Positions 3,295-21,730 are shown, counted from the stretch's first letter. The stretch is 64,000 nt of DNA from a virus (IMGVR_UViG_2907546677_000002:1-64000), one strand, 5' to 3'. The notes: generated by a model not told the origin, from the sequence alone. Made by a program: numbers and translations.

Positions 3295-3439
3295 CAACCT
3301 TGGAAAACAAGGCGACACGCCGAACATAATCAACGTCCAAAATATTGCGTATATTGGTTCATGTCCTCACAAAAGAAGAACCATGTTGCCCCCATCCGGC
3401 GGAATCCCCGCCGGACTGCCGTGGCGGATAGGAGAACCA

Positions 3440-4648
3440 ATGAGCAAGGAACTGTCAACCCTCGTCAAGACCGGCGTGGTGCAGGTCGGATGGCCCCGCC
3501 TCTACGAGGCCCAGTCGTTCAAGGCCGACAAGAACGGCAAGCCCGACCTCGTGCAGGAGTTCGACGAGAACGCGCTGCTGGACGACGCCGACCGGGGGCA
3601 CGCCGACAGCGTCAATGACGCATTGAAGAACTACGACGCCGCGGAAGACGATCCCAAGCGCCCCGAACTCGACATGGACGCCTTGGAGGACGTCTCGAAC
3701 CCCGCCCACCTGAAGAACGCGATGATGCTGCTGAAATACGTCAAGAGCCATTTCAGCACCACGGTGGCGGGAAAGCCGTCATACAGCCTCACCGTCCTGT
3801 TCGACAAGGACGATCCGTCCCAGGCGCGCAACATCAAGATGCTCCGCGAAGGCCAGTCGAACGCCATGAAGAACGCCGTCGCCAAGAAGACATGGATGAA
3901 GGCCACCATCCAGACAGCATCCCGCGCCATGCAGGACTGCGACACCGACGTGCAGACGTACGGCACCGGCGACAACGCCAAGCAGATGACCGCCGCCCAG
4001 AAGTACCCGGAACGCGCGAACCACTGGTACCTCAACGCCAAGGCCAAGCGCCGCCCCGACATCTACTACCTGTCCAAGGCGAACAAGTTCGTCAAGCTGC
4101 CCGCCCCGATCCTCATGCCGGAATCCGACGAGGAGCGCGAACAGGCGCTGCAGATCGAGGAACTGTGGAACAAGTGGGTGTACCCCGGCCAGAACGCGAT
4201 GCTGGGCGTGACGTTCAAGGCATGGACCAGTCCCGCCGGCGCCGGCGTCTCCTGCCATCTGGAGGCCGTGTTCATCATCGGCGGAGGCGTGAGGCTCGGC
4301 GGATACTCGTTCGGCGAGATCTTCGGCGACGAGGACCTTCAGGCGGCGGCCGAATGGCTGAAGAAGAACGCCCCCGATTTCGACCCGGAGACCGGCAAGG
4401 TCCGCCACGCGGAACCGGCCATGATGGACGACGACGAGGATTCCGAAGTAGACGAGACCACCGGGGAGATCACTGATCCGGAGCTCGCGCCCGTGCCGGA
4501 ACCCAAGCCGGTGAAGAAGCGCCGCACGACCCGCGCGAAGAAGCAGCTCGCGCCCGCGCCGGAACCCGAGCCCGCCGTCCCGGAGACCCCGGACACGGAG
4601 GATGCAGACGGGGACGATGGCGAGTTCGGCGAAGACGTCATCTGGTGA
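3440..4648 (+). CDS. phage-type single-stranded DNA-binding protein (DUF2815 / T7 gp2.5-like)
   Basis: SYSLTVLFDKDD, HWYLNAK, VYPGQNA and GVSCHLEAVFIIGGGVRLGG motifs. Acidic tail ends in an aromatic residue (EFGEDVIW). GGAG SD before ATG 3440. Confidence 0.7.
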   Translation: MSKELSTLVKTGVVQVGWPRLYEAQSFKADKNGKPDLVQEFDENALLDDADRGHADSVNDALKNYDAAEDDPKRPELDMDALEDVSNPAHLKNAMMLLKYVKSHFSTTVAGKPSYSLTVLFDKDDPSQARNIKMLREGQSNAMKNAVAKKTWMKATIQTASRAMQDCDTDVQTYGTGDNAKQMTAAQKYPERANHWYLNAKAKRRPDIYYLSKANKFVKLPAPILMPESDEEREQALQIEELWNKWVYPGQNAMLGVTFKAWTSPAGAGVSCHLEAVFIIGGGVRLGGYSFGEIFGDEDLQAAAEWLKKNAPDFDPETGKVRHAEPAMMDDDEDSEVDETTGEITDPELAPVPEPKPVKKRRTTRAKKQLAPAPEPEPAVPETPDTEDADGDDGEFGEDVIW

Positions 4649-4710: not shown

Positions 4711-7074
4711 TCAGAGGTTCGTCCCACTGTTGCCCGGCGGTGGCGTAGGCGTCGGGGTCGGCGTGGGAGCGGGCGTGGTCGTCTGCCTCTTCGGCGTGGG
4801 CGTCGGAGTGGTCTTCGGCGTCGTGTACTGGCGTCGCGGCGTGTACGAATAGCCGCTGCCGTTGCTGGACTGCGAGCGTTGCTGTTGCTGCTGTTGGGCC
4901 TTCTTCTGGGCTTCGGCCTGCTCCTTCGCCTTCTTCTCGGCGTCATCCTTGGCTCTCTTGTCGGCCTTCTCCTTGGCGACCTTCGCGACCAGCTGGCGCA
5001 GCTGCTCCCCCGCGTCGCCGGCGTCCTTCAGGTTGTCTTTGGTGACCTGGACTCCCTTCCACTCCCCCATCAGCTTTTCCATATCCTGTTTGCCGGTCGA
5101 ATCCGGCGCGTCCTTCAACCCCTCCCCCTGCTGTATGAGTGACTGGAGGGTTTTGCCCGTCTCCTCGGCCTTCTTGTCCATGAGGGTTCCATACTCGTCG
5201 TTCAGGTTCTTGTATGCCGTGTCCGCTTCACGCAGTGCCTTGCGCAGTGCGGTGGACGTCATGGGGCGTTGCTTTGTGACCGTCTGCAGGTTCTCCATCA
5301 GTTTCTTCACTGGCGGGTCGTCGTTCAATCCCATGTCCTCGATCTGCGTGATCAGGGCGGACGACTCCCCCTGCATGCGCTCCCACCTGCCCTGCAGTTG
5401 GGTGAGCTCGTTCTTCGCCTGCTGGGTTATCTCCTGCTGTCTTGCCTCCTCTTGCTTGCCTTGTACCGTGAGGTAGATCGCGTATCCGCCGCAGGCGAGC
5501 ACCACCGTGAGGGCGGTGGCGATGATGGCTATGAGAACAGCCATCCCCTTTCCTTTTTTCGTGGCGTCACGTGGAGCCGTTCCCACATCGGGACGGTATG
5601 CCAGTGGGACGTTCTGACGGTCTGCCGGCATACCGCCGTACTGTTCTCCCGGCGTGACGTTCTGTTTGTATGCCGGCATGCCGTCGCGCTGTTCCGGCAT
5701 GCCCGTCCCGTCATCATCCCAGTCTCTCCAGAAGCCGTCGTCCTGCGCGCCTTCCTGGGGCTGTTCCGCCGTCATGACATTCTGCCGTCGTGCGGTTGTG
5801 CCGTTCAGCCATGTTGACGTTGCACCGTCCTTCTGGCGTGCCGTCTTGCCGTTGTCCTTTTGTGCCGGCAATCCGTTCTGGTACCGCATCGGATCTACGG
5901 CAACCTGTCCCGCCTGTCCGCCGTCAAACCCGTCAGACTGCATTCCATCATCACGGTACGCCGTTTCGCCGTTTCGCCATCGCGCCGTCACGCCGTTTTC
6001 CCGTTGGGTTAGAGAACCGCCGCGACGTTCGGACGTTCCTCCGCCGTCTCCACTCTGCGGGTTCTGATCCTCGTCGGCTCCTTCCCAGACATCCCACATG
6101 TCGTCAGGGTCGGGGTCGTCGTGGGCGCTGGTGCCCGCCGGCGGATCGCCGTCCGGCTGCGCGGCTTCCCGCGGTTCGTACGTTGCGCCGTCGGAACCGC
6201 CCGACGGCGCAACGTCGCCACGTTCTTGTGTCGTAACGTCATGCCGTTGCGCCGTCATGCCGTTCTGTCGGGTTCCGCTCAGGCCGGCGTCATAGTTCCG
6301 CGTCGGATCCTGGGGTTCGGCTGGCGGGGCGATAGGATCATCCCAGTCGCCCCACATGTCATCCCGGGAATCCGGGGATTGGTTCCGGTAGGATGGCTCC
6401 CGCGCTGTCATGCCGTCATCACGTGACGCCGTTTCGCCGTCGTCTTGTCGTGCCGGTATCCCTGTGCCCTTTTCAGCCGCTATGCCGTGGTCACGTCCCA
6501 ACGGTTCGACGTTGGCACGTTCCGCCTGTACACCGTTGGATGTGGCGGCATCAGGGGCGTCATGCCGGGCTTCCGGCTCGTCGAGGTCGCCCCACGGATC
6601 ATCCAGGTCTATTTCGGGGTATTCGCCGCGACCTGCGTCCGACGTTGCGTCGTGTCCACTGTCTGCCGTGTAGCCGGCATGACGTTCCGCCGGTTCCACG
6701 GTATCCCGTCGTTCCGAGGAAACGGCATCACGTTGTTCTGGTGGCACGGCGTCATGTTGCGCCGGGGCATCGGCGGGACGTTTCACCGTAATGCCGGTGT
6801 CACGTTCAGCCGTTGAGACATCACGACGTGACGCCGGTTTCCTGTGGTCACGTGTGACAGGGGAGCCGTCATGCTGTTGCGCCGTCCCGCCGGTGTGATG
6901 TCGCGACGACATGCCGCCTTCCCGTCGAACCGTTTCACCATCATCCCGTGACGACGTTCCACCGGCGTGACGTTCCCACGTGCCGCCGTTTCGCCGGTCT
7001 TCCGTTTCGCCGGTGTCGGGCATCAGCAGGGAATCATCCAGCTCATTGCTTCCCGTGAGCCAGTCGTCGGCCAT
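4711..7074 (-). CDS. membrane-anchored protein: long 8-aa pseudo-repeat N-terminus, TM helix, coiled coil, P/T-rich tail
   Basis: GGAGG SD before ATG 7074. TM segment MAVLIAIIATALTVVLACGGYAIYL. 8-residue periodicity, e.g. QNGLPAQK/DNGKTARQ/KDGATSTW/LNGTTARR. Confidence 0.75.
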   Translation of the reverse strand: MADDWLTGSNELDDSLLMPDTGETEDRRNGGTWERHAGGTSSRDDGETVRREGGMSSRHHTGGTAQQHDGSPVTRDHRKPASRRDVSTAERDTGITVKRPADAPAQHDAVPPEQRDAVSSERRDTVEPAERHAGYTADSGHDATSDAGRGEYPEIDLDDPWGDLDEPEARHDAPDAATSNGVQAERANVEPLGRDHGIAAEKGTGIPARQDDGETASRDDGMTAREPSYRNQSPDSRDDMWGDWDDPIAPPAEPQDPTRNYDAGLSGTRQNGMTAQRHDVTTQERGDVAPSGGSDGATYEPREAAQPDGDPPAGTSAHDDPDPDDMWDVWEGADEDQNPQSGDGGGTSERRGGSLTQRENGVTARWRNGETAYRDDGMQSDGFDGGQAGQVAVDPMRYQNGLPAQKDNGKTARQKDGATSTWLNGTTARRQNVMTAEQPQEGAQDDGFWRDWDDDGTGMPEQRDGMPAYKQNVTPGEQYGGMPADRQNVPLAYRPDVGTAPRDATKKGKGMAVLIAIIATALTVVLACGGYAIYLTVQGKQEEARQQEITQQAKNELTQLQGRWERMQGESSALITQIEDMGLNDDPPVKKLMENLQTVTKQRPMTSTALRKALREADTAYKNLNDEYGTLMDKKAEETGKTLQSLIQQGEGLKDAPDSTGKQDMEKLMGEWKGVQVTKDNLKDAGDAGEQLRQLVAKVAKEKADKRAKDDAEKKAKEQAEAQKKAQQQQQQRSQSSNGSGYSYTPRRQYTTPKTTPTPTPKRQTTTPAPTPTPTPTPPPGNSGTNL
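5561..7017 (+). repeat. intragenic arrays of degenerate octamer MCGKYNNG with exact 8-bp period
   Basis: Runs at about 5561-5696, 5769-5880, 5945-6048, 6180-6275 and 6405-6540, plus a near-unbroken run of 47 register positions at 6642-7017 (e.g. ACGTTTCA CCGTAATG CCGGTGTC ACGTTCAG CCGTTGAG). Confidence 0.85.
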
Positions 7075-7099
7075 GTTTTCGCCTCCTCCAATCAGTATG

Positions 7100-8947
7100 C
7101 TACATGCCCTCTTGTGCGGACAGGCGGGCGACCGTCCTCAAGGAGTCGAGGGCGCTCACATGCTTGGCATCCACACCCGCCTCTATCAGCTTGCTCGCGT
7201 GGGCCGCCGCAGCGGCGCCCTTCAATGGGGCGTCACGGTCGTCCACGTCGCGCCCGTCCTCTCCGAAACCGTCCGTCGGGAACCCGTCGCCGGGATCGTC
7301 CTTGCCCTCGTACATGCTGCCGTCGTCCGGTTTCTCCGCGACGGCCGGCACGAGGTTGAGGATGTCGTCCCATGACAGGTGGCCGGCGTTGTCGTCGCCC
7401 TGCGGCGGGCGGATCCTTTCGATCCGTTCCTTGAGGATGTCCGGGTAGGTGAGCCCTTTCGCCTTGTCCTCCTCGTACAGGCCCTTGTACACGAATGGCA
7501 GCTGGTTGGGAAGCTCGGCGACGCCACATCCGATGGCGACGCCCTCCTCCATGAGGTTGGCGGGCAGCCGCGGGCAGTCCTTGTTGGTGAAGACCGCTTC
7601 GCGGATGTTGTCTGCCGCGTTTCCGGGGAGGATGGGGGACAGGTTGTTTCGGACGGACGGGTCGAGGCCGTTGGGCGCGCTGGGCGTCTGCGCGGCGTAC
7701 AGGAAGAATATTCCGGAGGCGCGGGCTATCTGCGATATCTTGCGCAGGAGGATGAAGCTCTTAGCATGGAGGGCTTTCTCGTATTTCGCGGCGATCTGGT
7801 CGGGGTTGTCCTTGTCGAGTCCGGGCAGGGTGACCGGCGAAGCCCATTGGGCGATCTCATCGCAGGCGAGAAGTATTGCATGGTTCTCATCCTTGGTCTG
7901 CTGGTCGAGCTCGAACCAGTTGCTCTTGCCCATGCGTTCGATCATCATGGCCCGCGAACTGCACAGGTTCATGATGTGCTGCAGGACGGCGCAGCAGCTT
8001 TCCTCGCTGTCGCACCCATACCCTTTGTCGATGACGTAGGATCGGCACCACTTGAAATCATTGCGTTTGAGGATGCTGTCGCATAGGGCGAGGTCGCATC
8101 CGGCAACGAGGGCCGAGTAGATGATGTTGTTGATGATGACGCTCTTGCCGTTGCCGCTCTTGCCGGCGACGATCAGTCCGGGGGACTCCTTGAAGTCGAC
8201 GCACGCCCAGTCTCCCGTCTCTCGTCCCTTGTCCGGCAGTTTCATGCCGAAGTAGATGTGCCGCATGTCGGGCTTGTCCCACAGCTCCTTCGGGAGGCTG
8301 ATGACCTTGGGGAACGTCGGGGGAGTGCCGGGGTAGACCATGATGACGCCGGTCTCCGGGTTGGCTTTGAAGAACCATCCCTTCTTCCCGATGGATTCGA
8401 CGGCCTCCTGCATCTTCTTGTCATGCGCCGACGCCTGGTAGGTGACGACGCCCTCCTTGAGTTTGAGACGCCACCCGTTCTCCGGGGTACGGCTGATGCG
8501 CAGGTTCCACGGCTGGATCTTGAACACGTTGGCGGCGAAGATCTGTCGCGCCGCCGTGGTCTTCTCGTCGAGCTGCTGCATGAGGACGAGGCATTCCTTG
8601 CTGCTGATGCGCACGAAGTCCACAACGCTGTACCCCTCATATTTCTGCTGGTGTTCCAGATCGTCGACGAGGTGTTTCTGCGCTGCGGGGCCGGAGCATT
8701 CGCTGGCGCTGAGCTTGAGCCCTATGGTGCCGTCGTTCAGGTCGGCTGAGTCCATATCCATGGGCGCGATGATCGCGTAACGGTTGTTGGGGTCGACGCT
8801 GTAGACGCTGTATCCCTCATACTCGTGGTTCTTGGCCGCCTTCTCCTGGATGAGGACGGTGAGCTGCATCATGTCCTTCGGATTGGTCTTGTCGAATCCG
8901 TCGGGGAAGAACTTGCCGAGAGGTATTTTCCTGAGTGCCCCGCTCAA
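7100..8947 (-). CDS. FtsK/SpoIIIE-family ATPase
   Basis: Walker A GLIVAGKSGNGKS, Walker B ILLACDEIAQW, ARASGIFFLYAAQ. Duplicated YEGYSV module in the N-terminus. Confidence 0.85.
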   Translation of the reverse strand: MSGALRKIPLGKFFPDGFDKTNPKDMMQLTVLIQEKAAKNHEYEGYSVYSVDPNNRYAIIAPMDMDSADLNDGTIGLKLSASECSGPAAQKHLVDDLEHQQKYEGYSVVDFVRISSKECLVLMQQLDEKTTAARQIFAANVFKIQPWNLRISRTPENGWRLKLKEGVVTYQASAHDKKMQEAVESIGKKGWFFKANPETGVIMVYPGTPPTFPKVISLPKELWDKPDMRHIYFGMKLPDKGRETGDWACVDFKESPGLIVAGKSGNGKSVIINNIIYSALVAGCDLALCDSILKRNDFKWCRSYVIDKGYGCDSEESCCAVLQHIMNLCSSRAMMIERMGKSNWFELDQQTKDENHAILLACDEIAQWASPVTLPGLDKDNPDQIAAKYEKALHAKSFILLRKISQIARASGIFFLYAAQTPSAPNGLDPSVRNNLSPILPGNAADNIREAVFTNKDCPRLPANLMEEGVAIGCGVAELPNQLPFVYKGLYEEDKAKGLTYPDILKERIERIRPPQGDDNAGHLSWDDILNLVPAVAEKPDDGSMYEGKDDPGDGFPTDGFGEDGRDVDDRDAPLKGAAAAAHASKLIEAGVDAKHVSALDSLRTVARLSAQEGM

Positions 8948-9690
8948 CGGTCCGTCTCCTTTCCATCGATGTCGGTTCTTAGCTGCCTGACCGCTCCCGT
9001 ATTGTCTTCGTATGCACCCCAGCCGAACGGGGTGCGCATGTCCGCCTCCGTGTTGACGATCATGGTGGTCGCGTGCGAATGGTTGCTTTTGCGGATCAGG
9101 GGGGTCACTGGCGCGGCTCCGAGATGGACGTGCGTGGCTTCCTCGCGAAGCCGTGCGGCCAGGTCACGTCCCATGGTGCGCCGGTTGAGCTCGCGTCCGG
9201 CGAGGACGACGGCCACGCCGGTCTGCCGGGCCTGTCCGATGATTCCGTTGAGCAGCACGCTGATGGTCTTGTATGCTCCGCATGGACGCTCGTTGCTGAC
9301 TTCACCCTGGGTCATGGCGTCGAAGTCGTCGAACACAAGCAGCAGCGGCCGGCGTGCGGGCGCGTCGGTTTCCGTGGGATGCCCGGACATCCTGCGCCGC
9401 TGTTCGGCCTGCGCCCGTTCCAACAGTTCGATGATCCTCGTGTCGTCCCCGTAATCGAGGTTCATGATGGTGGGGGAGGGAAGCGGCACGCCCTTCCTCC
9501 CCAATCGGGTGACGCTGGCTCCGTCCCGCTGGGCTTCGAGCATGATCCGGTCGGCGAACGTCGTCTTCCCGCAACCCTCATGGCCGGTGACGGTGAGTGT
9601 CGGAGAATCCTTCGTATCCCAGATGATTCGGCTGCCCCGCTGGTCGTGTCCCAGATCGATTTCCAATGCGTGTTCCTTTCCTGTGTTCAC
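8944..9690 (-). CDS. stand-alone FtsK-like P-loop ATPase domain
   Basis: LTVTGHEGCGKTT, LLLVFDDFD, ARQTGVAVVLAG. Start and stop overlap both neighbours. Confidence 0.75.
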   Translation of the reverse strand: MNTGKEHALEIDLGHDQRGSRIIWDTKDSPTLTVTGHEGCGKTTFADRIMLEAQRDGASVTRLGRKGVPLPSPTIMNLDYGDDTRIIELLERAQAEQRRRMSGHPTETDAPARRPLLLVFDDFDAMTQGEVSNERPCGAYKTISVLLNGIIGQARQTGVAVVLAGRELNRRTMGRDLAARLREEATHVHLGAAPVTPLIRKSNHSHATTMIVNTEADMRTPFGWGAYEDNTGAVRQLRTDIDGKETDR

Positions 9691-12600
9691 CAGTCGACCT
9701 CTTCGATGTCGTCCGGCGACTCGTCCTTGTTGTTGAGCAGGCTGTCGATCTCCTCCGCGTCGACCTGCTCACTCTGGGTTGTCTGCGTGTTCTGGTTGTT
9801 GAGGAGGTTGGCGAGTTCGTCATCGGATAGTTCGCCGTACCGTTCGGCGGCTGCGGGCATGAACGGCGAATAGTCGATGGGATGGGGTTTCGGATGGTCT
9901 CGGAACAGTTCCGCCAGCGCGTCCTGCTCTCCCGAATACCATGTCTGGACTGCGAGGAGTTCGCCCTGCGCGGTCTCGAACATGCCTCGTCCCTGGGGTA
10001 TCCGCCCGCCTTCGCCCTTCAACGACTGTTGGAGCCGGTTCGCTTCCTGCAGGTTCTGCTGGCTGATGATTCCGGCTGTGGAGTCCATGCCCAGGAGGAT
10101 GCGTCCGAGCGAACGGAACAGGGCGTTGGCGTTATACGGTTTCATGTCGTCCATGGACAGTCGTTGGGCGCCGAGGATGACGCTGATGCCCGCGGTTCGT
10201 CCCTGCACGACGATCTTTCCGAGCGCGCTCATGGTCCGTCGTATCGAATTGTTCGTCGCGGACACGGCCGCGTTGTCGTTCGCCAATTGGATGTCACGGT
10301 TCGGATTCTGCGTGGTCTTGCCGGCCTCCTGCAGATAGGAGTTGAACTCGTCGAAGAACAGGTCTATCGGCCGGACGTGCTCCAGCTCTTCGGGTGAGAG
10401 CATGGAACGGTCGAGCTCGTAGATGCTCGCGGCCCCGTATTTGCTGAGCAGTCTCACCCTTTGCGCCATCTCGTCGCGTAGCCACGCGATGACCGCTTCG
10501 GTCTCGCGCATCTGCCCGAGTCCCACGAACGCCAACGCCAACGGTTTCGCCCACCGGGTGAAATCGATGCAACCCTTTGACGGGTCGACGAGGATGATGC
10601 CATGCCCCTTGAGCAGCGCTTCGGCGACAATGATCTGCGCGGCGGATGATTTTCCGGTGCCCGACTTGCCGCTGACGAGCAGATGGTACGTGTCTTTCAC
10701 GTTCCAATAGACTGGGCTACCCATATCGTCCACTCCGAGCGGGAACATGCGTGGTTCCGCCGCGCGGGCGAAATCCCAGTCCGCTTCGACCATGGTGGGG
10801 AAGGGGCTGCGCTTGGCGAGCACCATGTCGTATCGTGTCGCGCCATGTTCCTCGCCGCGGGGGAGGATGCGCCCGTACCCGTATCCGGCGGCCGTCATGA
10901 ACTTTCCGATATTATGCTGCGGCTTGTCCACGTCCAGTCCGGCGGGAATGTCGAACCTGGCGAGGAGCACGTCGTGATTGCGGGGGAGGGCGCCCAGCTT
11001 GACGACCTTCGGGGTGCGTCCCGCGCTGTCGGTCACTCCCGCGTCTCCCCATGCGTCGGACAATGCCAGCTCGATCAGGAGCTTCTGCATCTGGCGTCTG
11101 CGCCAATGGGGGAGGTCTTCGACGCCGAGATGCGGGTCCCTGCACAGCCACAGGCTCGCCATGTCGGCTTTCTGCCAATCCCAGTACACGTGGGTCGCGC
11201 CGACCGCGGATTCCACGCGGGCCGCCTGCTTGCGCACGTCCATGACGGTGCCACCGCGATCCAAATGGAATTTGACGCGCCAGATCGCCACGTCACGCCC
11301 CTCCTGCGTGCACGAGTCGATGGTTGCGCCGGTCTTCGCGGGGAGCACGTCAAGCAGCGCCTTGAACACGATGCACTGCGCGTACTGGCGTATGTGCGGC
11401 TGTCCTCCGGTCAGGTTCTCGATGCGCGTGGGAGCCGCGCCGTCGGCGGTCAGCAGGTAGCCGGACTGGTCCTCGCCGATGACGCCCACGTATCGGGCGT
11501 CCGGAGCGAGCGTGGAGAGGTCCAGTCGCGCGTAGTCCGCCGCCGTGGACGGAGGGGTGAAACGGAGAGGCAGTATGCGCAGCGTCCAACCGCCGTCGCA
11601 ATCGAGCTCCTTTTCCCCGTCGTACAGTCCGATGGGCGCCGGGAGCTTGTTACCGATCAGGTCGCTCCACGTGGACTGGTCGGACTGGCAGCGTCGGGAG
11701 ACGCTGATGTAGTCGGCGAACGGCTTCCTCAACGTCATGCCGTCCGGCCTCCAACGGTTGCCCCTGTCGGACAGCGGGGTGTCAGGTTCGGCGACGAGGT
11801 GGAACGCAAAGGTCAGGTCGGCGAATACGGGCAGGTGCAGTGTCTGGTCGGGACCCCAGTCGCCGCCGAGCCAGTCGAAGCCGATCTTGTCGATGGGGTC
11901 GCCGCCCGATGGGGGAGTGTGGATGAGCAGCAGCCATGCGGCCTTCTCCCCGTCGGCGCTCACGTCCTTCGCTTCGGTCAGCGGCGCGCGCTTGTTCCAG
12001 ATGAGCGCGGTCCGCGCGTACGCGATGTCGCATACCAGGGTCGCTAGCCCCTCGCCAACGTCGCGCCTGCCGATGGAGGGGATGCTGGACTCGTCGCGGC
12101 CGAGTGCGAGACGGAAGCTGGACGGGTCGAACTGGAACGCGCCGGCCTTGCGCTGACGCGCCGCGAGCAGGCATACGAAACTGTATCCGTCGGCCGCGGT
12201 GACCGCCTTGACTTTCTCGACGCCGGTCTTGAACACGTCGTCGACGCTGCGTTTCTGACCGTCCTGCGAGCTGAGCGTGATACGGATGACGGTTAACGGG
12301 TTCTGCGGATCCCCCTTATGGTCCACTTGGGTGACGTACGCTCCCTCCCATGCTTTCCACAGGTCACTGCCTGACGCCCACTTGTCCACGAGCTGCTGTG
12401 TGTCCACGAGATCATGCCAGTACTGTGACTGGGGTTTGCGGGCGAGCAGCCACACGATGACGAGGAACAGCATGGCCGGGAGCGCGATGACGGCCGGAAG
12501 CGACATGTGCCCGATGTCTTCGGCCAGCCCGCGCATGAAGAGGAACAGCAGGAAGGCAAGCAGAATCAGGCTCGGAGCGCAAGCCAGGATCCTTTCCGAA

Positions 12601-13094
12601 ACGGAACCGTGTTTCAGGAATCCGGGAACGGACACACCCTTGTACACGTGCCTGCGGTCGGCCGCACGGTCGCGCCAGCGGATGAAGCCCATCATGCATG
12701 GGAACGCGGCGAGCATGTTCACGGCCAGCACGATCATTCCGGCGGAGCCGGGTGTCGCCAGCACGCCGACTGCCCAGCCCATCCACCATGAGACGCGCCG
12801 GACTTCCAGCCAATCCTTGTTGGGGATGATCCCGGCGAGCATGTCCTTCCACCGATGATATGCGGTCATGTCCCTGGGGTCGGGCTGGTCGGTTTTGCGT
12901 CCCGAACGCGGCTGGGGGAAACGCGCGGTCAGCCCGCCGAGAAGCATACCGATGAGAAGGAACGGCATGACCGGCAATCCCACCCACCATGCGATCGGAA
13001 TGATGAGTACGGGTATGGCGAACCACGCCCCTGCCAGAATGGGTTTGGCCTGTCGTGATCGTGCCCTGCTTCGTCGTCTGTATGCCACAGCCAA
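9687..13094 (-). CDS. membrane-bound FtsK/SpoIIIE-family ATPase (TcpA/TraB-like)
   Basis: Several N-terminal TM helices. C-terminal HLLVSGKSGTGKS, IDLFFDEFN, GRTAGISVILGAQR. Confidence 0.85.
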   Translation of the reverse strand: MAVAYRRRSRARSRQAKPILAGAWFAIPVLIIPIAWWVGLPVMPFLLIGMLLGGLTARFPQPRSGRKTDQPDPRDMTAYHRWKDMLAGIIPNKDWLEVRRVSWWMGWAVGVLATPGSAGMIVLAVNMLAAFPCMMGFIRWRDRAADRRHVYKGVSVPGFLKHGSVSERILACAPSLILLAFLLFLFMRGLAEDIGHMSLPAVIALPAMLFLVIVWLLARKPQSQYWHDLVDTQQLVDKWASGSDLWKAWEGAYVTQVDHKGDPQNPLTVIRITLSSQDGQKRSVDDVFKTGVEKVKAVTAADGYSFVCLLAARQRKAGAFQFDPSSFRLALGRDESSIPSIGRRDVGEGLATLVCDIAYARTALIWNKRAPLTEAKDVSADGEKAAWLLLIHTPPSGGDPIDKIGFDWLGGDWGPDQTLHLPVFADLTFAFHLVAEPDTPLSDRGNRWRPDGMTLRKPFADYISVSRRCQSDQSTWSDLIGNKLPAPIGLYDGEKELDCDGGWTLRILPLRFTPPSTAADYARLDLSTLAPDARYVGVIGEDQSGYLLTADGAAPTRIENLTGGQPHIRQYAQCIVFKALLDVLPAKTGATIDSCTQEGRDVAIWRVKFHLDRGGTVMDVRKQAARVESAVGATHVYWDWQKADMASLWLCRDPHLGVEDLPHWRRRQMQKLLIELALSDAWGDAGVTDSAGRTPKVVKLGALPRNHDVLLARFDIPAGLDVDKPQHNIGKFMTAAGYGYGRILPRGEEHGATRYDMVLAKRSPFPTMVEADWDFARAAEPRMFPLGVDDMGSPVYWNVKDTYHLLVSGKSGTGKSSAAQIIVAEALLKGHGIILVDPSKGCIDFTRWAKPLALAFVGLGQMRETEAVIAWLRDEMAQRVRLLSKYGAASIYELDRSMLSPEELEHVRPIDLFFDEFNSYLQEAGKTTQNPNRDIQLANDNAAVSATNNSIRRTMSALGKIVVQGRTAGISVILGAQRLSMDDMKPYNANALFRSLGRILLGMDSTAGIISQQNLQEANRLQQSLKGEGGRIPQGRGMFETAQGELLAVQTWYSGEQDALAELFRDHPKPHPIDYSPFMPAAAERYGELSDDELANLLNNQNTQTTQSEQVDAEEIDSLLNNKDESPDDIEEVDW

Positions 13095-13356
13095 TACATT
13101 AGGCGACGGTTAAGGTAAAACAAAATACGTTTAAAAATGTTTTTTGATTTATACGATCAGCGAAGTAAATGGTAGCGCTGATACTGGGATTTCTTTGTTG
13201 TCTTGGCGTGTCTATGGGCATCCACGCCGAAACGTGACCGGGATTTGGCGGTCGGTGGGAGTTTGGGCTTGCCTTGTCGTGCCTTGTTGGCTTAGTGTTG
13301 CAGTTAGCAAGGGCAGCAAGCGTCATTGAACATGAAACGTATTGGAGGTGGTTGAG

Positions 13357-13791
13357 ATGATGGCTTTGCTCGCAATGGTAGGTTTCACGATCCTGGTGAT
13401 CATGACTGCGATCTTCCTGCTGATGTTCCTGTTCTTCGGATCCCCGGCCGGAATCAAGTTCACGGAGATCTTCAACTGGGCTACGACCAGCGGCGTCGAA
13501 TCGGTGTGGAACATCGGTTTCACCGCACTGCTGCTGCTCATCCCGGTCGCGATCCAATTCGGCATCTTCATGCTGAGCCAGCTGATCAGCCGTGACTGGC
13601 TGCGTTTCCTCGCAGCGCCGGTCATCTACCTGCCGGTCGCCTGGTTCGTGTTCGACGCGACCCGACAGTACGAATACTTCCAACACAAGTGGATCGTCGC
13701 CGCGGCATTGCTCCTGTACGTGGTTCCCATCATCGGCTCCTGGCTGTGGATCATCAACGACTCTTACCGGCGGATCAAGGCGTCCCGCTAG
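13357..13791 (+). CDS. integral membrane protein (about 4 TM)
   Basis: GGAGGT SD before ATG 13357; almost entirely hydrophobic helices. Confidence 0.7.
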   Translation: MMALLAMVGFTILVIMTAIFLLMFLFFGSPAGIKFTEIFNWATTSGVESVWNIGFTALLLLIPVAIQFGIFMLSQLISRDWLRFLAAPVIYLPVAWFVFDATRQYEYFQHKWIVAAALLLYVVPIIGSWLWIINDSYRRIKASR

Positions 13792-14078
13792 CCGAGTTGG
13801 GTTTTCGCCTCGTCGATTACCTGCTGCAGTTCGTCGCCGACCTTGATGTCCTCCATGTAGTAGTACGCGCTGCGCCACTGGCTTGAGTTCGTCTTGCGTT
13901 GGGCGGCGCTCACCTTCACGCTTCCCTGAACCCATTCTCCGCTCTCGTCGCGGGTGAATCGGATGATGGCTGTTCGGGCGAGCACCTGCGTGCCGTCAGT
14001 CTTATCCAAGATCAGCTGAGGGTCAAGCTTCCTGATCACTTCGGCGGTGCGATGCGTGCTGTCAGTCGACTGGATCAT
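13788..14078 (-). CDS. hypothetical protein, paralog of 21818..22123
   Basis: Shared pattern KLDPxLxxxxxDGTxVLxR...W..AY.Y..D......L...IDEA. Confidence 0.65.
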   Translation of the reverse strand: MIQSTDSTHRTAEVIRKLDPQLILDKTDGTQVLARTAIIRFTRDESGEWVQGSVKVSAAQRKTNSSQWRSAYYYMEDIKVGDELQQVIDEAKTQLG

Positions 14079-14610
14079 ATGCTTCCTTCCTTGTCGCGTA
14101 GATGAGGTTCGAACCGTGCCCGCGCATCACGCTGTCGCGCAGCGGGATGGGGCGCTTGTATCCGCCGTTGCGGATGGATGCGGCGAACTCGTATTCTTCG
14201 AACGGGAATCCATGTCCGCTGGTCACGTCGTCCAACTGCACCCACCGGTTTCCGGTGTCGGCGCAGGCTTCCGGCATGGTGTACCGGCTGTCCGTCGGGG
14301 GTTGCTTGTCGTCGCCGACGTCGTGGATGTCTCCCATGAGCCAGTCGTCGTCGGTCGTCCAGATGATGAGCCGCTGGCACATTTTGAGGTTCATGACGCT
14401 TGCCCCGTTGAATCGGGTGAGGAGGTGCCCGTCATGGTTGTGCGCGTGGCCGGCGAGCGTGTGGATGTAGTTGGCTCCGTCGCCGGGCTGCCAGTTGTAG
14501 CGTATTTCCGTCTTGTGGTCGGCGCGGACGTATTCCCGGCCGACCTGTCTTTTGATGCCGCTGAGTCGGCGGAATGCGACGCGCTGTCCGGCTGGTTTCC
14601 GTGTTTTCAC
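14062..14610 (-). CDS. hypothetical protein
   Basis: 182-aa ORF with AAAGGA SD before GTG 14610, downstream of motif copy 2. Confidence 0.65.
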   Translation of the reverse strand: MKTRKPAGQRVAFRRLSGIKRQVGREYVRADHKTEIRYNWQPGDGANYIHTLAGHAHNHDGHLLTRFNGASVMNLKMCQRLIIWTTDDDWLMGDIHDVGDDKQPPTDSRYTMPEACADTGNRWVQLDDVTSGHGFPFEEYEFAASIRNGGYKRPIPLRDSVMRGHGSNLIYATRKEAYDPVD

Positions 14611-14632
14611 GGGGTCACGTCCTTTCTTTCTT

Positions 14633-14658
14633 GTGCAGACATTATCAGTGTATCACGT
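14633..14658 (-). promoter_or_regulatory. 26-bp motif copy 2
   Basis: ACGTGATACACTGATAATGTCTGCAC. Confidence 0.8.
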
Positions 14659-14717
14659 CATGCGATTGGGTGCGATGCCAAATGTCGACTCGGAAAAGCG
14701 GAGCCCAACCGAGAACG

Positions 14718-15069
14718 TTGACGTCCTCCCGTGGTTGAAACCACGGGATTCCAGCATTTAGGATGCTGAGGTTCCGCACGCTCTAACGGCAGCGTCCGAC
14801 CCGCGATATGCGGGGTGGACGTCTTGCGTCGTAGTGGCGTGCCCGGCTCCGTCCGAGCCGGATAGTTGCCGCCATCCCCTGTCGAGGATGTTTTTGGCGG
14901 CGTTCAAATCCGCGTTCATGCGAATGCCGCACTTTTTGCAGTGGAATTCCGCTTGGCTTTCGCGGTTGTTCCTTTCGCAGTGTCCGCATTCGCTGCACGT
15001 TTGGGACGTGTATGCGGGGTTGACGAGCATGAGCAGACTGTCGTCCGCCAGTCGTGTCTTGTATTCAAG
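14718..15069 (-). mobile_element. tnpB: IS200/IS605-family remnant: tnpB 3' end plus right end
   Basis: LEYK...VNPAYTSQTCSECG...FHCKKCG..MNADLNAAKNIL (Zn ribbon plus RuvC-III). Subterminal hairpin cccgtggtt-ga-aaccacggg at 14728-14747. Terminal TCAA at 14721-14718. Confidence 0.85.
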
Positions 15070-15171
15070 CTTGCCGACGCCGGAAGGGTAGCCGTCCAAT
15101 TGGCAGTAGATCGCGCTGATCATGAAGTCCGGGTTGGTGGTTGCGATGATGCTTCGGGTGCCCATGCTCAC
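14758..15171 (-). pseudogene. chimeric ORF: unrelated N-terminus fused in frame to the TnpB C-terminus
   Basis: MGTRSIIA...IYCQLDGYPSGVGKL joined to EYKTRL...; junction near 15066-15070. Confidence 0.7.
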
Positions 15172-16859: not shown

Positions 16860-18302
16860 TCAGCCTTCCGAGCCGCTGGCCTCCTTCTGGATATTGGCCC
16901 AATGCTTGTTGCGGAAGAAGTACACGTTGCCAGACTCCATCTGGTCCTTGGTGCGCCACCGGTCGCCCTCATAGCTGTTCCAGCAGCCGTCGCCATCCCA
17001 GCCGAAGCAGGGCGGCACGTTGTTCACGTTCCCCTCGCTCATGCGCACCTTGTAGCCGGACGGGTCGGACTTGACCTCCTCGATGATGACGATATGGTTC
17101 GTCCACCCGGCGGCCATGTCGCCGGGATGCGGTGTCCGGTCGACGGTCCAGTCCGGGTCGTCCATGAGGTTGATGGGTATGTCCTTCGCCCTGGTGTGCA
17201 TGCGGATGTTGGGCACGTCCCAGTTGGTGAGCGTGCTGCCTTTCTTCGTCCAGTCCAGCCCGTAGATCATGACGGCGCGGGTCATCGCGTACCAGGTGCA
17301 TTGGTAGCCGTTGTCGTGCACGGTCTCATACCAGTGGTAGCCGCCGTAGTCGTGGGGGTTGCACACCTTCATCGCCTCGCACATCCAGTCGAAGTTGCCT
17401 CGTTTGGCGGGCGCGTCGCCGATCTTGCCGTACACGGCGCCACTGTCGTCGGTTCCGCATGACGCCTGCTGCACGCTTCCGTCGCCGCTCTCGTCATCCC
17501 AGGTGGTGCCGTCGTTGTTGGAGCCGTCCTGGAAGTTCTTCAGATGCGTGTTGTCCTTGGTCTTGTCGGGAAAGGTGATGTCCTTGAGCCCCTTGTCGTA
17601 CCAGTATTGTGCGCTTCCTGTGCGTTTCTCCTCGGCCCATTCGCTTGGGCCGGGTCCTTCGAAGCCGAACAGCCATGCCATCGCCGCGGTCTTCGGGTCG
17701 CCGGTGGTCTGCCATGCGCGGAACAGGCGGGTTCCGGCCTTCGCGTTCGGAGCCTTGTATCCGAGGCTCTGATAGTTGGAGAGACGTCCGGCCCCGTCCA
17801 TCCACCGTGATGTGTTGGAGGGGACGGCGACGAGTTGCGCGAGGACCTTCACCTGCCCGTCGAGGTCGCTTATCTTCGTGTCCTTCAGTCCTATGGAGTC
17901 CATTTCGGTGCGCAGCTTCGATCCCGGATTCCATTGAGCGATGCCGTATGCGCCGGAGGCCGGGTTCTTCGCCGTGGGCAGGAACTGGCTTTCCTGTTCG
18001 AGGTTGCCGAGGATGCCGGCCACGCCGGCCTTGGACACGCCCGCGTCGGCGAGGTCCTTCGCTATCTTCAGCGCGTTGTCGCTGGGTTTCGACGGCTCGG
18101 TGTACCCGTCGCCCTCGGTCTCGTCCGTGTCGCTCACGCAGCTTGCGCTTGAAGCTTCGGCGTCACCGCCTTTCTGCGTGGAGATGGTGGTCATCATGCC
18201 GCTGATGGCCGCGCTGATGCCGAGTACCGTCATCACCTGGAACAGGACGGTCGAGATCATGGCTACGGCGGCGATCTTGAGCCCGATGTTCGATTTGCCC
18301 AC
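16860..18302 (-). CDS. cell-wall hydrolase: phage-tail-lysozyme-like domain plus CHAP domain (VirB1/TcpG-like)
   Basis: N-terminal TM; AGILGNLEQES and GAYGIAQW; YQCTWYA, PHPGDM, HIVIIEEV, MSEGN. Confidence 0.85.
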   Translation of the reverse strand: MGKSNIGLKIAAVAMISTVLFQVMTVLGISAAISGMMTTISTQKGGDAEASSASCVSDTDETEGDGYTEPSKPSDNALKIAKDLADAGVSKAGVAGILGNLEQESQFLPTAKNPASGAYGIAQWNPGSKLRTEMDSIGLKDTKISDLDGQVKVLAQLVAVPSNTSRWMDGAGRLSNYQSLGYKAPNAKAGTRLFRAWQTTGDPKTAAMAWLFGFEGPGPSEWAEEKRTGSAQYWYDKGLKDITFPDKTKDNTHLKNFQDGSNNDGTTWDDESGDGSVQQASCGTDDSGAVYGKIGDAPAKRGNFDWMCEAMKVCNPHDYGGYHWYETVHDNGYQCTWYAMTRAVMIYGLDWTKKGSTLTNWDVPNIRMHTRAKDIPINLMDDPDWTVDRTPHPGDMAAGWTNHIVIIEEVKSDPSGYKVRMSEGNVNNVPPCFGWDGDGCWNSYEGDRWRTKDQMESGNVYFFRNKHWANIQKEASGSEG

Positions 18303-18317: not shown

Positions 18318-19049
18318 TCAGCGTTCGAGGAACGGCTTGAACTGGCGGTCGATGAACACGTTGTATTCTCCCTCCATGATCTCGGCGGCTTTCTTGCCGT
18401 CCTCGATGATCGCGTTCGGGATTCTGGTCTCGCCCCATGTGCTGAACAGGAGTTCCAGAGGCCGGGTCTCCTCCTTGGGATGCTGCATGGCGAATCCCAG
18501 CAGCCGAGCCTGGTTCAGGGTCATTAACGGTTTCACCGTGTCATGGGCCCAGCTGGCGGCCGCCTCCCACACGTCGGGGTCGATGTCGACCGGGTCGGTG
18601 ACCTCATAGGCGAGCAGGTCGCCGTCATCCTCCCGCATGACGCCCGTGGCCGTGTATGCGGCCACCATCGTGAGGGCGAACTCGTTCGGATCGGTGTCCA
18701 CGTCCGGCTCATGCCCTTGGGGCACGTGCAGCAGCGGGTATCCAAGCACGGTCTCGTTCGGGAACCGTTCGTCGCCTTTCAGGATGAGGAAGGGGAGGCT
18801 GATGGCGGGCGTGAACAGTACGCGGTCGTCCGGACTGCCTCCCGGCACCTCGATCAGGCTTGAGGCCGCGTCGCGGATGCGCTGCAGGTAGACGCTGGGG
18901 CGTTCCGCCAGCAGGGGGAGCGGGCTTGCGAATCCCTTGAATAGCAGCGGCTGCTGATGTCCTTCCGATTCGTTATTGTTGCCCGTCTCCCGGTCGTCGC
19001 CGGTTTGGTTTCCGGTCAGGGGCGTGCCGAACATGTCCGTGTAACTCAT
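18318..19049 (-). CDS. hypothetical protein in the VirB4 operon
   Basis: Protein-like from ATG 19049 (MSYTDMFG), which overlaps the VirB4 stop. The upstream part of the listed 438-aa ORF is a VirB4 shadow. Confidence 0.75.
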   Translation of the reverse strand: MSYTDMFGTPLTGNQTGDDRETGNNNESEGHQQPLLFKGFASPLPLLAERPSVYLQRIRDAASSLIEVPGGSPDDRVLFTPAISLPFLILKGDERFPNETVLGYPLLHVPQGHEPDVDTDPNEFALTMVAAYTATGVMREDDGDLLAYEVTDPVDIDPDVWEAAASWAHDTVKPLMTLNQARLLGFAMQHPKEETRPLELLFSTWGETRIPNAIIEDGKKAAEIMEGEYNVFIDRQFKPFLER

Positions 19050-21730
19050 GCTGCTGTCTCCATTCTGATTGTCTGGTTCTCCTTGGCTTTTTCGCGGGCG
19101 ATCTTGTCGGTCGCGGTGGTGGATATCTCCTTGAGAAGGTCGGGCGGTATGACTATTTCGACCGGTACGGGCTGTTTGGATCCGTCGATGAAATAGGCGA
19201 CGGCGCCGCGGACGGTCTTGCCGTTCTTCTTGACGAGTCGTCTCAGGCTCGCCCACTGCGGTTCCTTGTTGTCCTTCGTGTCGTCCAACGCCATGCGGCG
19301 GCGCATCTGTCCGCTGGAGTCCTCGACGTGGAGGAACCGTTCCGCGGCCTTGGCGAGGCTCACGTTGCCGTCCACTTCGGGCGGGTCGTCGAGCGAGAGG
19401 ATGAATCCGCGGCTGACGCCGCCGTTCATGCCCGCGTCGATGAACTCCTGCGTTTTCTGGCTGGCGAACACCGGGGTGAAACGGCGGGATCGTGCCGTTC
19501 GCATCCATTCCTCGACGGTGCAGCTCGCGCCCTTGCCCTTGCCTCCAAGCACCCATGCCTCGTCGACGCCGACCATGCCGTCCCTGCCGGCTATGGAGGC
19601 GCCGGCACCCAGCACGATCATGCGCAGCATCCACTGTTGGAGGCGTCCGGTGGCCGTGTTCTCCGAACCGGCTTCGGGGATGAGCGAACGGTTGCCGGCG
19701 TTGATCAGCGTGAGGTTCTGGCTGGTGCGCAGGGGGTCGATGTCGTCGCTCATGCCGAAGATCAGGCGCATGGGCTGGAAACTCTTCAACGCTATGCGGA
19801 TCTGACGGTACACGTCGAGACAGTTGTCGGGAAGGTTCAGCGCGTCGATGTCCCCGCCGCCCTTCATGGTCTGGGCGTAATCGTGCGCGGCCTTGGCTAT
19901 GGCGGTGCCGGTGACTTTCGCCCCGTGCTGGATGCCGTAGGTCAGCATGGCGGCGATGGCGATCTCAAGCGAGGCGTCATCACTGTTCGGGTGCAGGATG
20001 TCGGACAGCATGATGGCGGACAGCTCCTTCGCCCGGTCCGCGTTGTCCATGACCATGAACGGGTCGAACATGCCGTCCGACAGATCGGAATCGACGCGGA
20101 TGACCTGGCCTCCCGCGGCTCGTATGGCGTCCTCGAAGTCGTCTCCCGACTTGGGGTTGATGAGGATGCATGGGGTGAACCCGCCCTCGCGGGACCTGAT
20201 TCTGGACCATTGGATGAACAGGCTCACCAGCAGCATGCTCTTGCCGGAGCCCGTACGTCCGGCGATGACGATGCCGGGCGCGCGATCCTGATCCTGTACG
20301 GTCGTTGTTCCCACATAGACCGGCTGACGGTTCGCCTCGGTCATCCCGACCAATGCACCCCAGTCGTCGCCGGCGCGCGCGAAACTGCTCGCCCCGGCGC
20401 CGGTGATGCAGGTCGCCGACCAGTGCATCTCATAGGGGGTCATGCGGATCGGGGAGCATGCCTGCATGCTTTTGAACGCCATCAGCTGCTCGTTCGCGGT
20501 CGTCAGGTTCGTGAACTCCAGGCGGGGGATGCGGGACAGGGAGTCGACCGCCATCTGCGAGTTGCCTGCGACACAGGCGGCCACGCTCAGGTCGAGGATG
20601 GTCGGGGGCATGTCGGGGGACTCGTAGATCGACTTCTTGTAGTCGAGGAGACGCTGTATCTCCTTCATGTCTCCCGTGGCCTCATGGTTCTTCTCGTACC
20701 GGTCCTTGATGGCCTCGTCGATGGTGCGGCTGTTGCGGCGGATTTGGTCGGCGGTCACCTTCGACGGTTCGACCCTTCCGCGGATGCTCACGCCGACCGC
20801 GTTCGCCCCTCCCGCGTTGCCCACTTCGAGGAGCTGGGCGAGCCACAGGTTGGAGGGGTCGGAGATCGCGGACTGGGTGAACTCGCTGGACCGGGCGAAG
20901 CACACGCTGGCCGGATACTCGTTGGGGATGTTCCAGTCGGCGCAGTCGACCTCCTGGTCGTAGAGCTTTTTCGCGTTGCGGCACACGTCTGCGTCGGGGA
21001 AGAAATGCAGGTGGTCGTTCTCGGCGATGATGGGCAGTGCGCTGGCGTTCGCGCGGCTGACCCACCATGTCTCCATCATGCTCACGAGCCGTTCCCGTTC
21101 CTGGCTTTCCATGACGCTGAACGGTTCGAGGCCGGCGTTGAGCATGATCCTTTCGATGATGTGCGCGTCGGGCAAGTATTCCTCGAACATGGGGCACCCG
21201 TTGGCGATGCTGTAGCTCATGCGGTCAAGCGACTTCATGCCCCGCTGCATGAGTGTTTCGCCGCGCGGAGGTCTGCCCGATCCGGCCAGGTTGAGGGGAA
21301 CGCCGATGACGGCGAACTGCTTGCGGGTTTTCATGCCGCGGTAATAATAGTTCTGGTATTCGCCCAATGGCTCGTCCCTCATCAGGGATGGGGCCGCGTA
21401 GGGTACGGGCATGCTGCCTGCGAGCAAGTGAAACTCCCGGTATTCGCTTTTGAGCAGACTGCGGTATCGCATTCCGGCGACGGTGACCTGCGCGGCGAGC
21501 CCGTCAAAGAACGCCATGATCTGGTCCGCGACCTCGCGGCGCTTGCTGTCGTTGGCGCCGTCGATCAGCGCGGCGCTCCACGGGATGTTCGCCCAGAGCC
21601 ACACCGTCCTGTCGGGTGTGGCCGCGCGCAGGAGCCCGTATTCGCTGGCCGGGCTGATGAAGCTCTCTGGACGATAGATACTGCCTTTTGACATATTCCC
21701 TACTCTAGGCGAGTTGTCTGTATCGTCCAA
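19046..21730 (-). CDS. virB4: VirB4-like conjugative ATPase
   Basis: About 890 aa; GIVIAGRTGSGKS, ILINPK, GMVGVDEAWVL, ARSRRFTPVFASQ. Start may be ATG 21694. Confidence 0.8.
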   Translation of the reverse strand: MDDTDNSPRVGNMSKGSIYRPESFISPASEYGLLRAATPDRTVWLWANIPWSAALIDGANDSKRREVADQIMAFFDGLAAQVTVAGMRYRSLLKSEYREFHLLAGSMPVPYAAPSLMRDEPLGEYQNYYYRGMKTRKQFAVIGVPLNLAGSGRPPRGETLMQRGMKSLDRMSYSIANGCPMFEEYLPDAHIIERIMLNAGLEPFSVMESQERERLVSMMETWWVSRANASALPIIAENDHLHFFPDADVCRNAKKLYDQEVDCADWNIPNEYPASVCFARSSEFTQSAISDPSNLWLAQLLEVGNAGGANAVGVSIRGRVEPSKVTADQIRRNSRTIDEAIKDRYEKNHEATGDMKEIQRLLDYKKSIYESPDMPPTILDLSVAACVAGNSQMAVDSLSRIPRLEFTNLTTANEQLMAFKSMQACSPIRMTPYEMHWSATCITGAGASSFARAGDDWGALVGMTEANRQPVYVGTTTVQDQDRAPGIVIAGRTGSGKSMLLVSLFIQWSRIRSREGGFTPCILINPKSGDDFEDAIRAAGGQVIRVDSDLSDGMFDPFMVMDNADRAKELSAIMLSDILHPNSDDASLEIAIAAMLTYGIQHGAKVTGTAIAKAAHDYAQTMKGGGDIDALNLPDNCLDVYRQIRIALKSFQPMRLIFGMSDDIDPLRTSQNLTLINAGNRSLIPEAGSENTATGRLQQWMLRMIVLGAGASIAGRDGMVGVDEAWVLGGKGKGASCTVEEWMRTARSRRFTPVFASQKTQEFIDAGMNGGVSRGFILSLDDPPEVDGNVSLAKAAERFLHVEDSSGQMRRRMALDDTKDNKEPQWASLRRLVKKNGKTVRGAVAYFIDGSKQPVPVEIVIPPDLLKEISTTATDKIAREKAKENQTIRMETAA

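Follow-up and report, generated by a model that had tools for sequence, protein, structure and literature searches.

An operon of FtsK- and TcpA-like motors in a pMP7017-like Bifidobacterium element carries an intragenic octamer array that matches the element's own partition operator

The stretch of DNA analyzed here (IMGVR_UViG_2907546677_000002:1-64000; 64,000 nucleotides, referred to as the window) makes up the initial 64 kb of an 88-kb record, listed as a provirus by IMG/VR, and is read as a fragment of a pMP7017-like Bifidobacterium conjugative megaplasmid or integrative and conjugative element (ICE). The window carries an operon in which genes for FtsK-family ATPases are followed by a gene, P0001, that contains a long array of phased 8-bp units within its coding sequence. 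The motif of this array recurs directly upstream of parA on the same element, and in five of six independent replicons the array motif points to the replicon's own parA upstream region, the motif itself differing between replicons. The interpretation towards which we lean, with modest confidence, is that the operon is a conserved module of a Gram-positive-type type IV secretion system (T4SS) in the pMP7017 family of Bifidobacteriaceae megaplasmids, and that the array is a centromere-type site coated by a ParG-like protein.

Four tightly packed minus-strand open reading frames (ORFs) were found from 13094 to 4711, at exactly the coordinates given in a preliminary reading of the same DNA (the first-pass annotation). 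The junctions between them are, in order, a 4-nt overlap, a second 4-nt overlap and a 25-nt gap. The features of the operon are as follows.

13095-13341, minus strand: intergenic region upstream of the operon, AT-rich near the start codon, in which the operon promoter is predicted to lie
9687-13094, minus strand: P0002, 1135 aa, membrane-anchored FtsK-family motor
8944-9690, minus strand: P0003, 248 aa, free-standing and degenerate paralogue of the P0002 motor domain
7100-8947, minus strand: P0004, 615 aa, soluble TcpA-like motor
4711-7074, minus strand: P0001, 787 aa, single-pass membrane protein
5545-7032, minus strand: phased 8-bp array, core ACGGC on the gene strand, in the translated 5' 1.5 kb of P0001
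4674-4708, minus strand: terminator hairpin with a 15-bp perfect stem (-33 kcal/mol), after the P0001 stop codon and between convergent genes

A scan for consensus promoters and terminators gave results at chance level. A 278-aa minus-strand ORF directly upstream of the operon (13099-13935) was rejected as spurious (G+C content at third codon positions, GC3, 0.47; junk-like translation), and the operon was therefore taken as a four-gene unit. The true upstream neighbor is a 149-aa plus-strand ORF (13342-13791, GC3 0.85) that is divergent from the operon.

The octamer array reported in the first-pass annotation is real. Match fractions of 0.41, 0.40 and 0.425 were obtained at lags of 8, 16 and 24, compared with a background of ~ 0.25, and 99 octamers on the gene strand scored above 4 bits where 20 were expected. 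The units are mostly same-strand direct repeats (99 versus 43 matches) and are thus biased in orientation. ACGGC occurs 29 times in the array, with 37 of 47 nearby spacings being multiples of 8 and with the three codon phases used about equally, and the 8-residue peptide pseudo-repeat of P0001 is one octamer read in three frames. A period-8 model that tracks phase gave 2.38 bits, compared with 0.38 for codon shuffles. The array is laid out in four constant-phase stretches of up to ~ 400 nt, and the register shifts at four acidic-tryptophan motifs of the encoded protein. Permutation of synonymous codons weakened the array signal (z 8.7), and codon usage departed from that of the neighboring genes (GAA 0.88 versus 0.36, CGC 0.09 versus 0.43, ACG 0.62 versus 0.34). 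Frame 0 contains no stop in 509 codons, while the other two frames of the gene strand contain 12 and 30. The array region is both translated and constrained at the DNA level, because a single open frame is combined there with the use of all codon phases, a synonymous-site signal and aberrant codon usage. With more than 100 units inside a translated gene, it shows plainly that a protein code and a DNA code can overlap. Elsewhere in the record, a period-8 hint at 14400-14800 showed no repeat on inspection and disappeared with a stricter statistic, and an ACGGC excess at 80-88 kb was found to be scattered coding sequence, not an array.

The P0001 protein comprises a disordered N-terminal region of ~ 509 aa, one transmembrane (TM) helix, a helical domain rich in K, E and A, and a Pro/Thr-rich tail, with the four acidic-tryptophan motifs located at residues 158, 238, 324 and 445. 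No Pfam family matched P0001, and a search of the ESM Atlas with its C-terminal half returned only sub-threshold coiled-coil look-alikes. Homologues of P0001 lie 3' of the motor genes in pMP7017, the related loci L006-L009, the genome G036 and B. longum, and several tryptophan motifs rich in D and E are present in P0001 and in all of these homologues, including that of the octamer-free L009. The homologous genes of L006, pMP7017, Pseudoscardovia, Galliscardovia, G036 and a B. longum plasmid also display the array periodicity, with consensus octamers that differ from one another. In L009, the P0001-type protein and its acidic-tryptophan motifs are kept and the periodicity is absent. In G222 (43% GC), parA and the motors are present and no period-8 DNA was found on its whole 97-kb contig.

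It could be that the periodicity has no function at the DNA level and is a relic of slippage in a disordered, sequence-tolerant region of the protein. The arm encoded by the array is of low complexity, L009 retains protein and motifs in its absence, and a recent duplication would also leave similar synonymous sites. However, the units are degenerate, hence not recent copies, and yet their register is kept over hundreds of bases; moreover, the periodicity extends across genera with different consensus sequences, and the same motif is found at each replicon's own parA operator. A slippage relic is considered quite improbable.

The best match of the array model outside the array in the 88-kb record is at 48940-49240, directly upstream of parA, and a period-8 statistic that uses no motif placed 5 of its 7 best non-array windows in the record at 48801-49300. 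The partition cassette at this location is made up as follows.

48940-49240: two clusters of ACGG(C)/CCGT boxes in 8-bp register, upstream of parA
49275-49892, plus strand: P0042, 205 aa, short ParA, type Ib partition ATPase (Pfam AAA_31, CbiA, MipZ, ParA, VirC1)
49889-50254, plus strand: P0043, 121 aa, ParG-like small partner, its start overlapping the parA stop codon

The upstream clusters consist of ~ 13 direct units followed by a cluster of ~ 14 units in mixed orientation over the promoter region. For the comparison between replicons, the array model was trained for each replicon on its own array and the rank of that replicon's own parA-upstream region was taken, with the models of the other replicons serving as the control. 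The own region ranked first of 382 in the window, first of 582 in B. longum CP143940, second of 377 in Pseudoscardovia, third of 401 in Galliscardovia and third of 494 in G036, where parA lies on another contig. The models from other replicons ranked parA-upstream regions at 19-770. While the motors are 38-62% identical between replicons, the octamer is entirely different from one replicon to the next and goes with the par operator. The array co-evolves with this operator across genera, which raises the possibility of a link between partition and conjugation.

Further sites in individual replicons were recorded. In Galliscardovia (G001:C6), a third site matching the replicon's own array model is present at 81079-81205, intergenic between divergent genes and just downstream of the array gene, which hints that the par protein may also regulate other promoters. 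The second-best site in pMP7017 (10100-10268), flanked by a CAP-domain gene and a sortase gene, was set aside as not par-related. The Pseudoscardovia contig G221:C7 (86150 bp) has the array at its end and the 3' part of the same gene at its start; because the gene is split over the contig ends, the contig is taken to be a circular replicon opened inside the array gene, and this suggests that assemblers break at the array repeat.

P0043 appears to be a likelier candidate reader of the octamers than the motors, because the octamer tracks the par operator, the motor pair also occurs where there is no array, and no reader domain is visible in the motors. Its place after parA and its small size are likewise those of a ParG-type partner. 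The genes 3' of parA in the window, pMP7017, Galliscardovia and Pseudoscardovia have in common a strand-helix-helix sequence pattern, the first segment of which, presumed to read DNA, varies between replicons. In a tblastn search for the small gene after parA, the sequences proved too diverged.

The first-pass annotation had instead proposed that the octamers are the loading site of the motors, in a module resembling the Streptomyces TraB/clt system. In that case, FtsK-type motors would recognize the array within the operon that encodes them and would pump plasmid DNA in double-stranded form, providing a second transfer route. The motors do belong to the FtsK family, plasmid TraB is the top NCBIfam match of P0002 (36 bits, cut-off 800), the 8-bp repeats are mostly on the same strand and lie in the motor operon of every array-bearing element, and no relaxase was recognized with PF03432 in the 88-kb record. 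Direct 8-bp repeats are also what TraB reads in the clt loci of Streptomyces (PMC4447253). However, the TraB match covers the Walker A region only, no winged helix-turn-helix (wHTH) domain is present in the P0004 model, and the P0002 tail is short and acidic. The motif recurs upstream of the replicon's own parA and covaries with par, changing fully between replicons while the motors stay conserved. In addition, the motor pair is found without the array (L009) and without the fourth gene (chromosomal ICE-like loci). TraB systems work alone, without a T4SS, whereas the operon described here lies inside a full T4SS backbone (VirB4, VirB6-like, hydrolase, VirD4-like) and is not a stand-alone motor. 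A TraB/clt-like module is regarded as unlikely, and the analogy is corrected to one of resemblance only.

The identity of the motors was established most clearly for P0004. This protein consists of an extra N-terminal domain (residues 1-126), a TcpA-like region (127-517) and a disordered tail; no hydrophobic or membrane segment was detected in it, and its Pfam FtsK-type match had an E-value of 1.9e-6. An AlphaFold model of P0004 was built from 35 homologues (predicted local distance difference test, pLDDT, 85). Foldseek searches with this model returned TcpA of plasmid pCW3 first (2e-14), followed by FtsK (1e-12) and EssC/EccC (3e-9), and VIA-align superposed residues 127-517 on TcpA 106-459 with a Z-score of 27.5, compared with 23.6 for EccCb1-D2 and 23.1 for FtsK. 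The TcpA alignment also covers the domain ahead of the RecA-like core, while the Z-scores of 23-24 for EccC and FtsK are for the cores alone. A P0004 family profile searched against the PDB matched TcpA and FtsK at ~ 1e-6 and gave no EccC or EssC chain at E ≤ 1. In the model, the motor is followed by short helices and the disordered tail. Within this tail, at residues ~ 560-583 (window ~ 7200-7270), the 35 homologues carry an invariant motif, G.G.DGRD...PL.GA..A.H, which is probably a binding peptide.

P0002 has hydrophobic segments within approximately its first 220 aa, a region without assigned domain at residues ~ 230-760 and a motor domain at ~ 765-1000, with a Pfam FtsK_SpoIIIE match (E 3e-8) near residues 778-980. 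A profile built from five family members matched the FtsK motor in the PDB at 1.4e-12, TcpA at 2e-8 and EccC at 2e-7, the last being confined to the Walker A region. The motor is followed by an acidic, poorly conserved tail of ~ 130 aa that ends in EEVDW, (window ~ 9687-9720), and a C-terminus of the form EE(I/V/L)DW is kept across P0002 homologues. No wHTH reader was seen in this short tail. The first-pass statement that no clear gamma (wHTH) domain is visible is thus borne out for P0004 by the structural model, and for P0002 it agrees with the sequence of the tail.

Residues 13-245 of P0003 align with residues 786-1057 of P0002 (BLASTP, 23% identity, E 7e-11), and the protein is a bare and free-standing paralogue of the P0002 motor domain. 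Weak EccCb- and NACHT-type P-loop matches were also obtained for P0003. A NACHT/STAND identity was rejected, the matches being at the level of the P-loop only and accounted for by the near full-length match to the P0002 motor. Among relatives, P0003 occurs in L006, L009 and B. longum CP143940 and is missing from pMP7017, Pseudoscardovia and Galliscardovia, and the L009 homologue has lost both Walker A and Walker B. P0003 is an optional accessory in which a copied P0002 motor domain is decaying.

A series of three FtsK-like P-loop units that begins with a membrane-anchored one could also represent an EccC/EssC-like protein-secretion ATPase split into three polypeptides and serving type VII-like export. 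The sole NCBIfam match of P0003 is EccCb (23.6 bits, cut-off 346.55), and the RecA-like core of P0004 superposes on both EccCb1-D2 and EccC. Against this stand the P0004 profile search and the extent of the TcpA alignment described above, and P0003 is absent or catalytically dead in many relatives. A six-frame search of the 88-kb record, itself a fragment, with PF06013 gave no WXG100 match at E ≤ 1, and EccB, EccD and MycP were not seen among the scanned genes. Each motor protein contains one recognizable motor, and FtsK and TcpA rank highest in both sequence and fold comparisons, so that the motors are of the DNA-translocase type, as the first-pass annotation had it. Since WXG100 substrates were not found and the best matches are DNA translocases, the operon is not regarded as type VII secretion, which is very unlikely to be its role. 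In PADLOC, all four ATPases matched nothing more specific than the generic FtsK/HerA P-loop model mad8, and there is accordingly no sign of a defence system; PHROGs labeled the motors 'FtsK/SpoIIIE-like' only.

The setting of the operon points to conjugation. Features of the transfer backbone in the window are as follows.

19046-21730, minus strand: VirB4-like ATPase (Pfam AAA_10)
16860-18302, minus strand: lysozyme/CHAP cell-wall hydrolase (Pfam Phage_lysozyme2, CHAP)
41668-44274, plus strand: P0005, probable VirD4/TraG-type coupling protein, with TM segments and with Walker A and B ~ 300 aa apart

The presence of a VirD4-like protein at 41668, as first annotated, is upheld by the TM segments, the spaced Walker motifs and ESM Atlas neighbors at 0.96-0.98 that carry TrwB_AAD_bind, T4SS-DNA_transf and TraG-D_C, but not by any sequence match in Pfam or the PDB. 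A second ATPase of VirD4-like type probably exists, then, beside the motors. In the contigs of relatives, a constant block runs from a VirB4-like gene through one gene, a hydrolase gene and one or two small genes to the membrane FtsK motor, and continues with, sometimes, a P-loop protein of ~ 240 aa, then the soluble FtsK motor and a protein of 650-913 aa. The genes for VirB4, the hydrolase, both motors and the large membrane protein are kept together in at least six elements, and the membrane motor and soluble motor always co-occur in the loci compared. Local tblastn identified a second conserved block on the same replicons, comprising p511, the VirD4-like P0005, the VirB6-like P0006 and parA. 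Protein searches found P0004 relatives down to 43% identity in Bifidobacterium, Pseudoscardovia and Galliscardovia, named in their sources only as FtsK or hypothetical, and such a relative is present in 13 of 236 species genomes of the family. A locus search with the single P0004 protein found no relatives in genome contigs and, in viral contigs, only the window's own near-duplicate.

In more distant relatives, some of them on chromosome-sized contigs, the motor pair lies beside CHAP hydrolases and the fourth gene is absent. This argues for a role in transfer over one in plasmid segregation, since segregation is not needed at chromosomal loci. The same observation bears on the possibility that the motors act as a septal DNA pump, clearing or orienting a single-copy megaplasmid at the closing septum with the ParG-coated array as a polarity or loading signal. 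Such a pump, if it existed, would link partition to FtsK-type translocation. pMP7017-type plasmids are large and present at ~ 1 copy (PMC8313286), FtsK-type motors adjoin a par-type array of biased orientation, and soluble P0004-like genes stand alone on Micrococcales megaplasmids, with neither a membrane motor nor an array adjoining. The motor pair is, however, embedded in a conjugation backbone and also occurs in the chromosomally integrated relatives. In the rest of the record, the ACGGC strand counts follow gene direction, with no spread of the kind seen for the FtsK-orienting polar sequences (KOPS). A septal pump is accordingly thought to be decidedly unlikely.

The conjugative module with a ParG-coated array would then operate as follows. 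P0002 and P0004 would assemble into ATPase rings and work on DNA at the mating channel in the manner of TcpA in pCW3, alongside the separate VirD4-like protein, while P0003 could cap or regulate the motor assembly. P0001 would be a membrane scaffold with a disordered cytoplasmic arm bearing the four acidic-tryptophan motifs. As a similar motif ends P0002, it is suggested that the P0001 arm and the P0002 C-terminus may dock on one common partner. The array, situated in the spacer parts of the arm, would be coated by the plasmid's own ParG-like centromere-binding protein, which would probably make it a large centromere-type site for the type Ib parA/parG system and not a loading site of the clt kind.

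Several observations weigh against this reading. The fold of P0043 is one: the monomer model has a pLDDT of 50, with residues 1-70 disordered and followed by three helices where a ribbon-helix-helix (RHH) fold would be expected, no Pfam or PDB sequence match was found, and a profile search of the PDB with a ParG-like alignment gave nothing meaningful. In pMP7017, the own-array model ranked the own parA-upstream region only 59th of 835, a weak result. The array is invariably located in the motor operon (42 kb from par in the window), a placement that a role purely in partition does not explain. A DNA reader could be concealed in the central 500 aa of P0002 or in residues 1-126 of P0004, neither of which has an assigned domain. 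Two FtsK-type motors together with a VirD4-like protein are unusual in one T4SS. The failure to find a relaxase with PF03432 in the 88-kb record also counts here, as does the MOB-suite call of non-mobilizable for related megaplasmids that are experimentally conjugative, and papers on pMP7017 make no mention of these proteins.

One interpretation that would accommodate the placement of the array is that it is a shared cis site, where the FtsK/TcpA-type motors would engage the plasmid on ~ 1.5 kb of ParG-coated DNA. The array DNA could be held at the channel by nascent P0001 as it inserts into the membrane. This extension is given a low probability, but if it were true, it would couple vertical and horizontal inheritance, and a hand-over from partition to translocation could explain transfer by a plasmid family without a recognizable relaxase.

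The assignment of the element to the pMP7017 family is based on nucleotide matches and gene order. In a plasmid collection, the only nucleotide matches were to Bifidobacterium megaplasmids, at 76-81% identity, and the gene order around the operon is that of pMP7017 from B. breve, comprising in both a PD-(D/E)XK nuclease, a helix-turn-helix (HTH) regulator, a DUF2815 single-stranded DNA (ssDNA)-binding protein, a large hypothetical protein, FtsK and FtsK/SpoIIIE. The genes scanned in the window include a VirB4-like ATPase, the lysozyme/CHAP hydrolase, DnaB, ParA, a C5 methylase and a pentapeptide-repeat protein, all of plasmid type, and no capsid or tail gene was seen among them. The record is filed as a provirus, yet the gene content examined is that of a conjugative plasmid or ICE. 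To our knowledge, pMP7017-type megaplasmids are the sole conjugative plasmids proven in bifidobacteria, and we know of no characterization of their transfer genes. They are common in B. longum of the human gut. The present work defines, within this family, a motor module composed of a membrane FtsK-type motor, a TcpA-like soluble motor and a disordered membrane scaffold, beside a VirD4-like protein.

Other genes of the window were also noted. A short ORF at 14758-15171 contains a Cas12f1-like/TnpB TNB domain (E 1.5e-19) and is probably a TnpB remnant. A pentapeptide-repeat protein with DUF5758 at its C-terminus (31230-32381), an orphan C5 methylase (25417-26598), an RNase T-like exonuclease (24095-24685) and the DUF2815 ssDNA-binding protein (3383-4648) together look like a leading-region or anti-restriction set. 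In pMP7017 (L001 17396-18490) and B. longum CP143940 (132686-133603), a nonessential RepA gene is divergent from, and adjoins, the motor operon, with direct repeats upstream of the RepA gene; the window has other genes at that position.

Compared with known systems, the operon has in common with EccC/EssC the additional strand, catalytic glutamate (ASCE)-type FtsK-HerA core and an arrangement of several P-loop units in series behind a membrane anchor, and differs from it in having separate polypeptides with one recognizable motor each, in being without type VII secretion genes, and in a similarity that is weaker than that to TcpA and FtsK. With Streptomyces TraB/clt it shares an FtsK-family motor and direct 8-bp repeats beside or within a transfer gene. 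Here, however, no C-terminal wHTH is seen, a T4SS is present, the array extends over ~ 1.5 kb compared with a handful of repeats, and the array motif tracks the par operator. A further system for comparison is that of plasmid R388, in which StbA, a partition-type DNA binder, and StbB, together with the stbDR repeats near oriT, balance inheritance and conjugation. Repeat arrays in the transfer region are common to both elements, whereas the protein families are different and the R388 arrays are short and intergenic.

The par cassette most resembles that of TP228, where ParG dimers coat 4-bp boxes with 4-bp spacers (an 8-bp period), direct or inverted, in parH and OF upstream of parFG (PMC3130281). 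Like ParF/ParG, the window encodes a short ParA and a small partner with a flexible N-terminal tail, and short boxes at an 8-bp period occur in both orientations upstream of parA, with ~ 13 + 14 units compared with 12 + 8 in TP228. Unlike TP228, the window has a second array, more than 10 times larger, 42 kb away and in a translated gene of a conjugation operon; the spacers are not AT-rich, and the RHH fold of P0043 is putative.

For the motors, the closest parallel is pCW3 of Clostridium perfringens, the TcpA protein of which is the best fold and profile match of P0004. As in pCW3, two FtsK-family genes are found here in a locus with VirB4-like, VirB6-like and hydrolase genes, and the second FtsK-like gene of pCW3, tcpB, is dispensable for transfer (PMC6137059). 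The two systems differ in that the TM anchor (P0002) and the TcpA-like soluble domain (P0004) are on separate proteins in the window, with the P0002 motor matching FtsK better than TcpA, and in that P0002 has an extra 500-aa region and is accompanied by a VirD4-like protein, a degenerate third motor and a large disordered membrane protein. The operon is classed with the FtsK-family coupling ATPases of Gram-positive T4SSs, as a variant whose closest known relative is TcpA.

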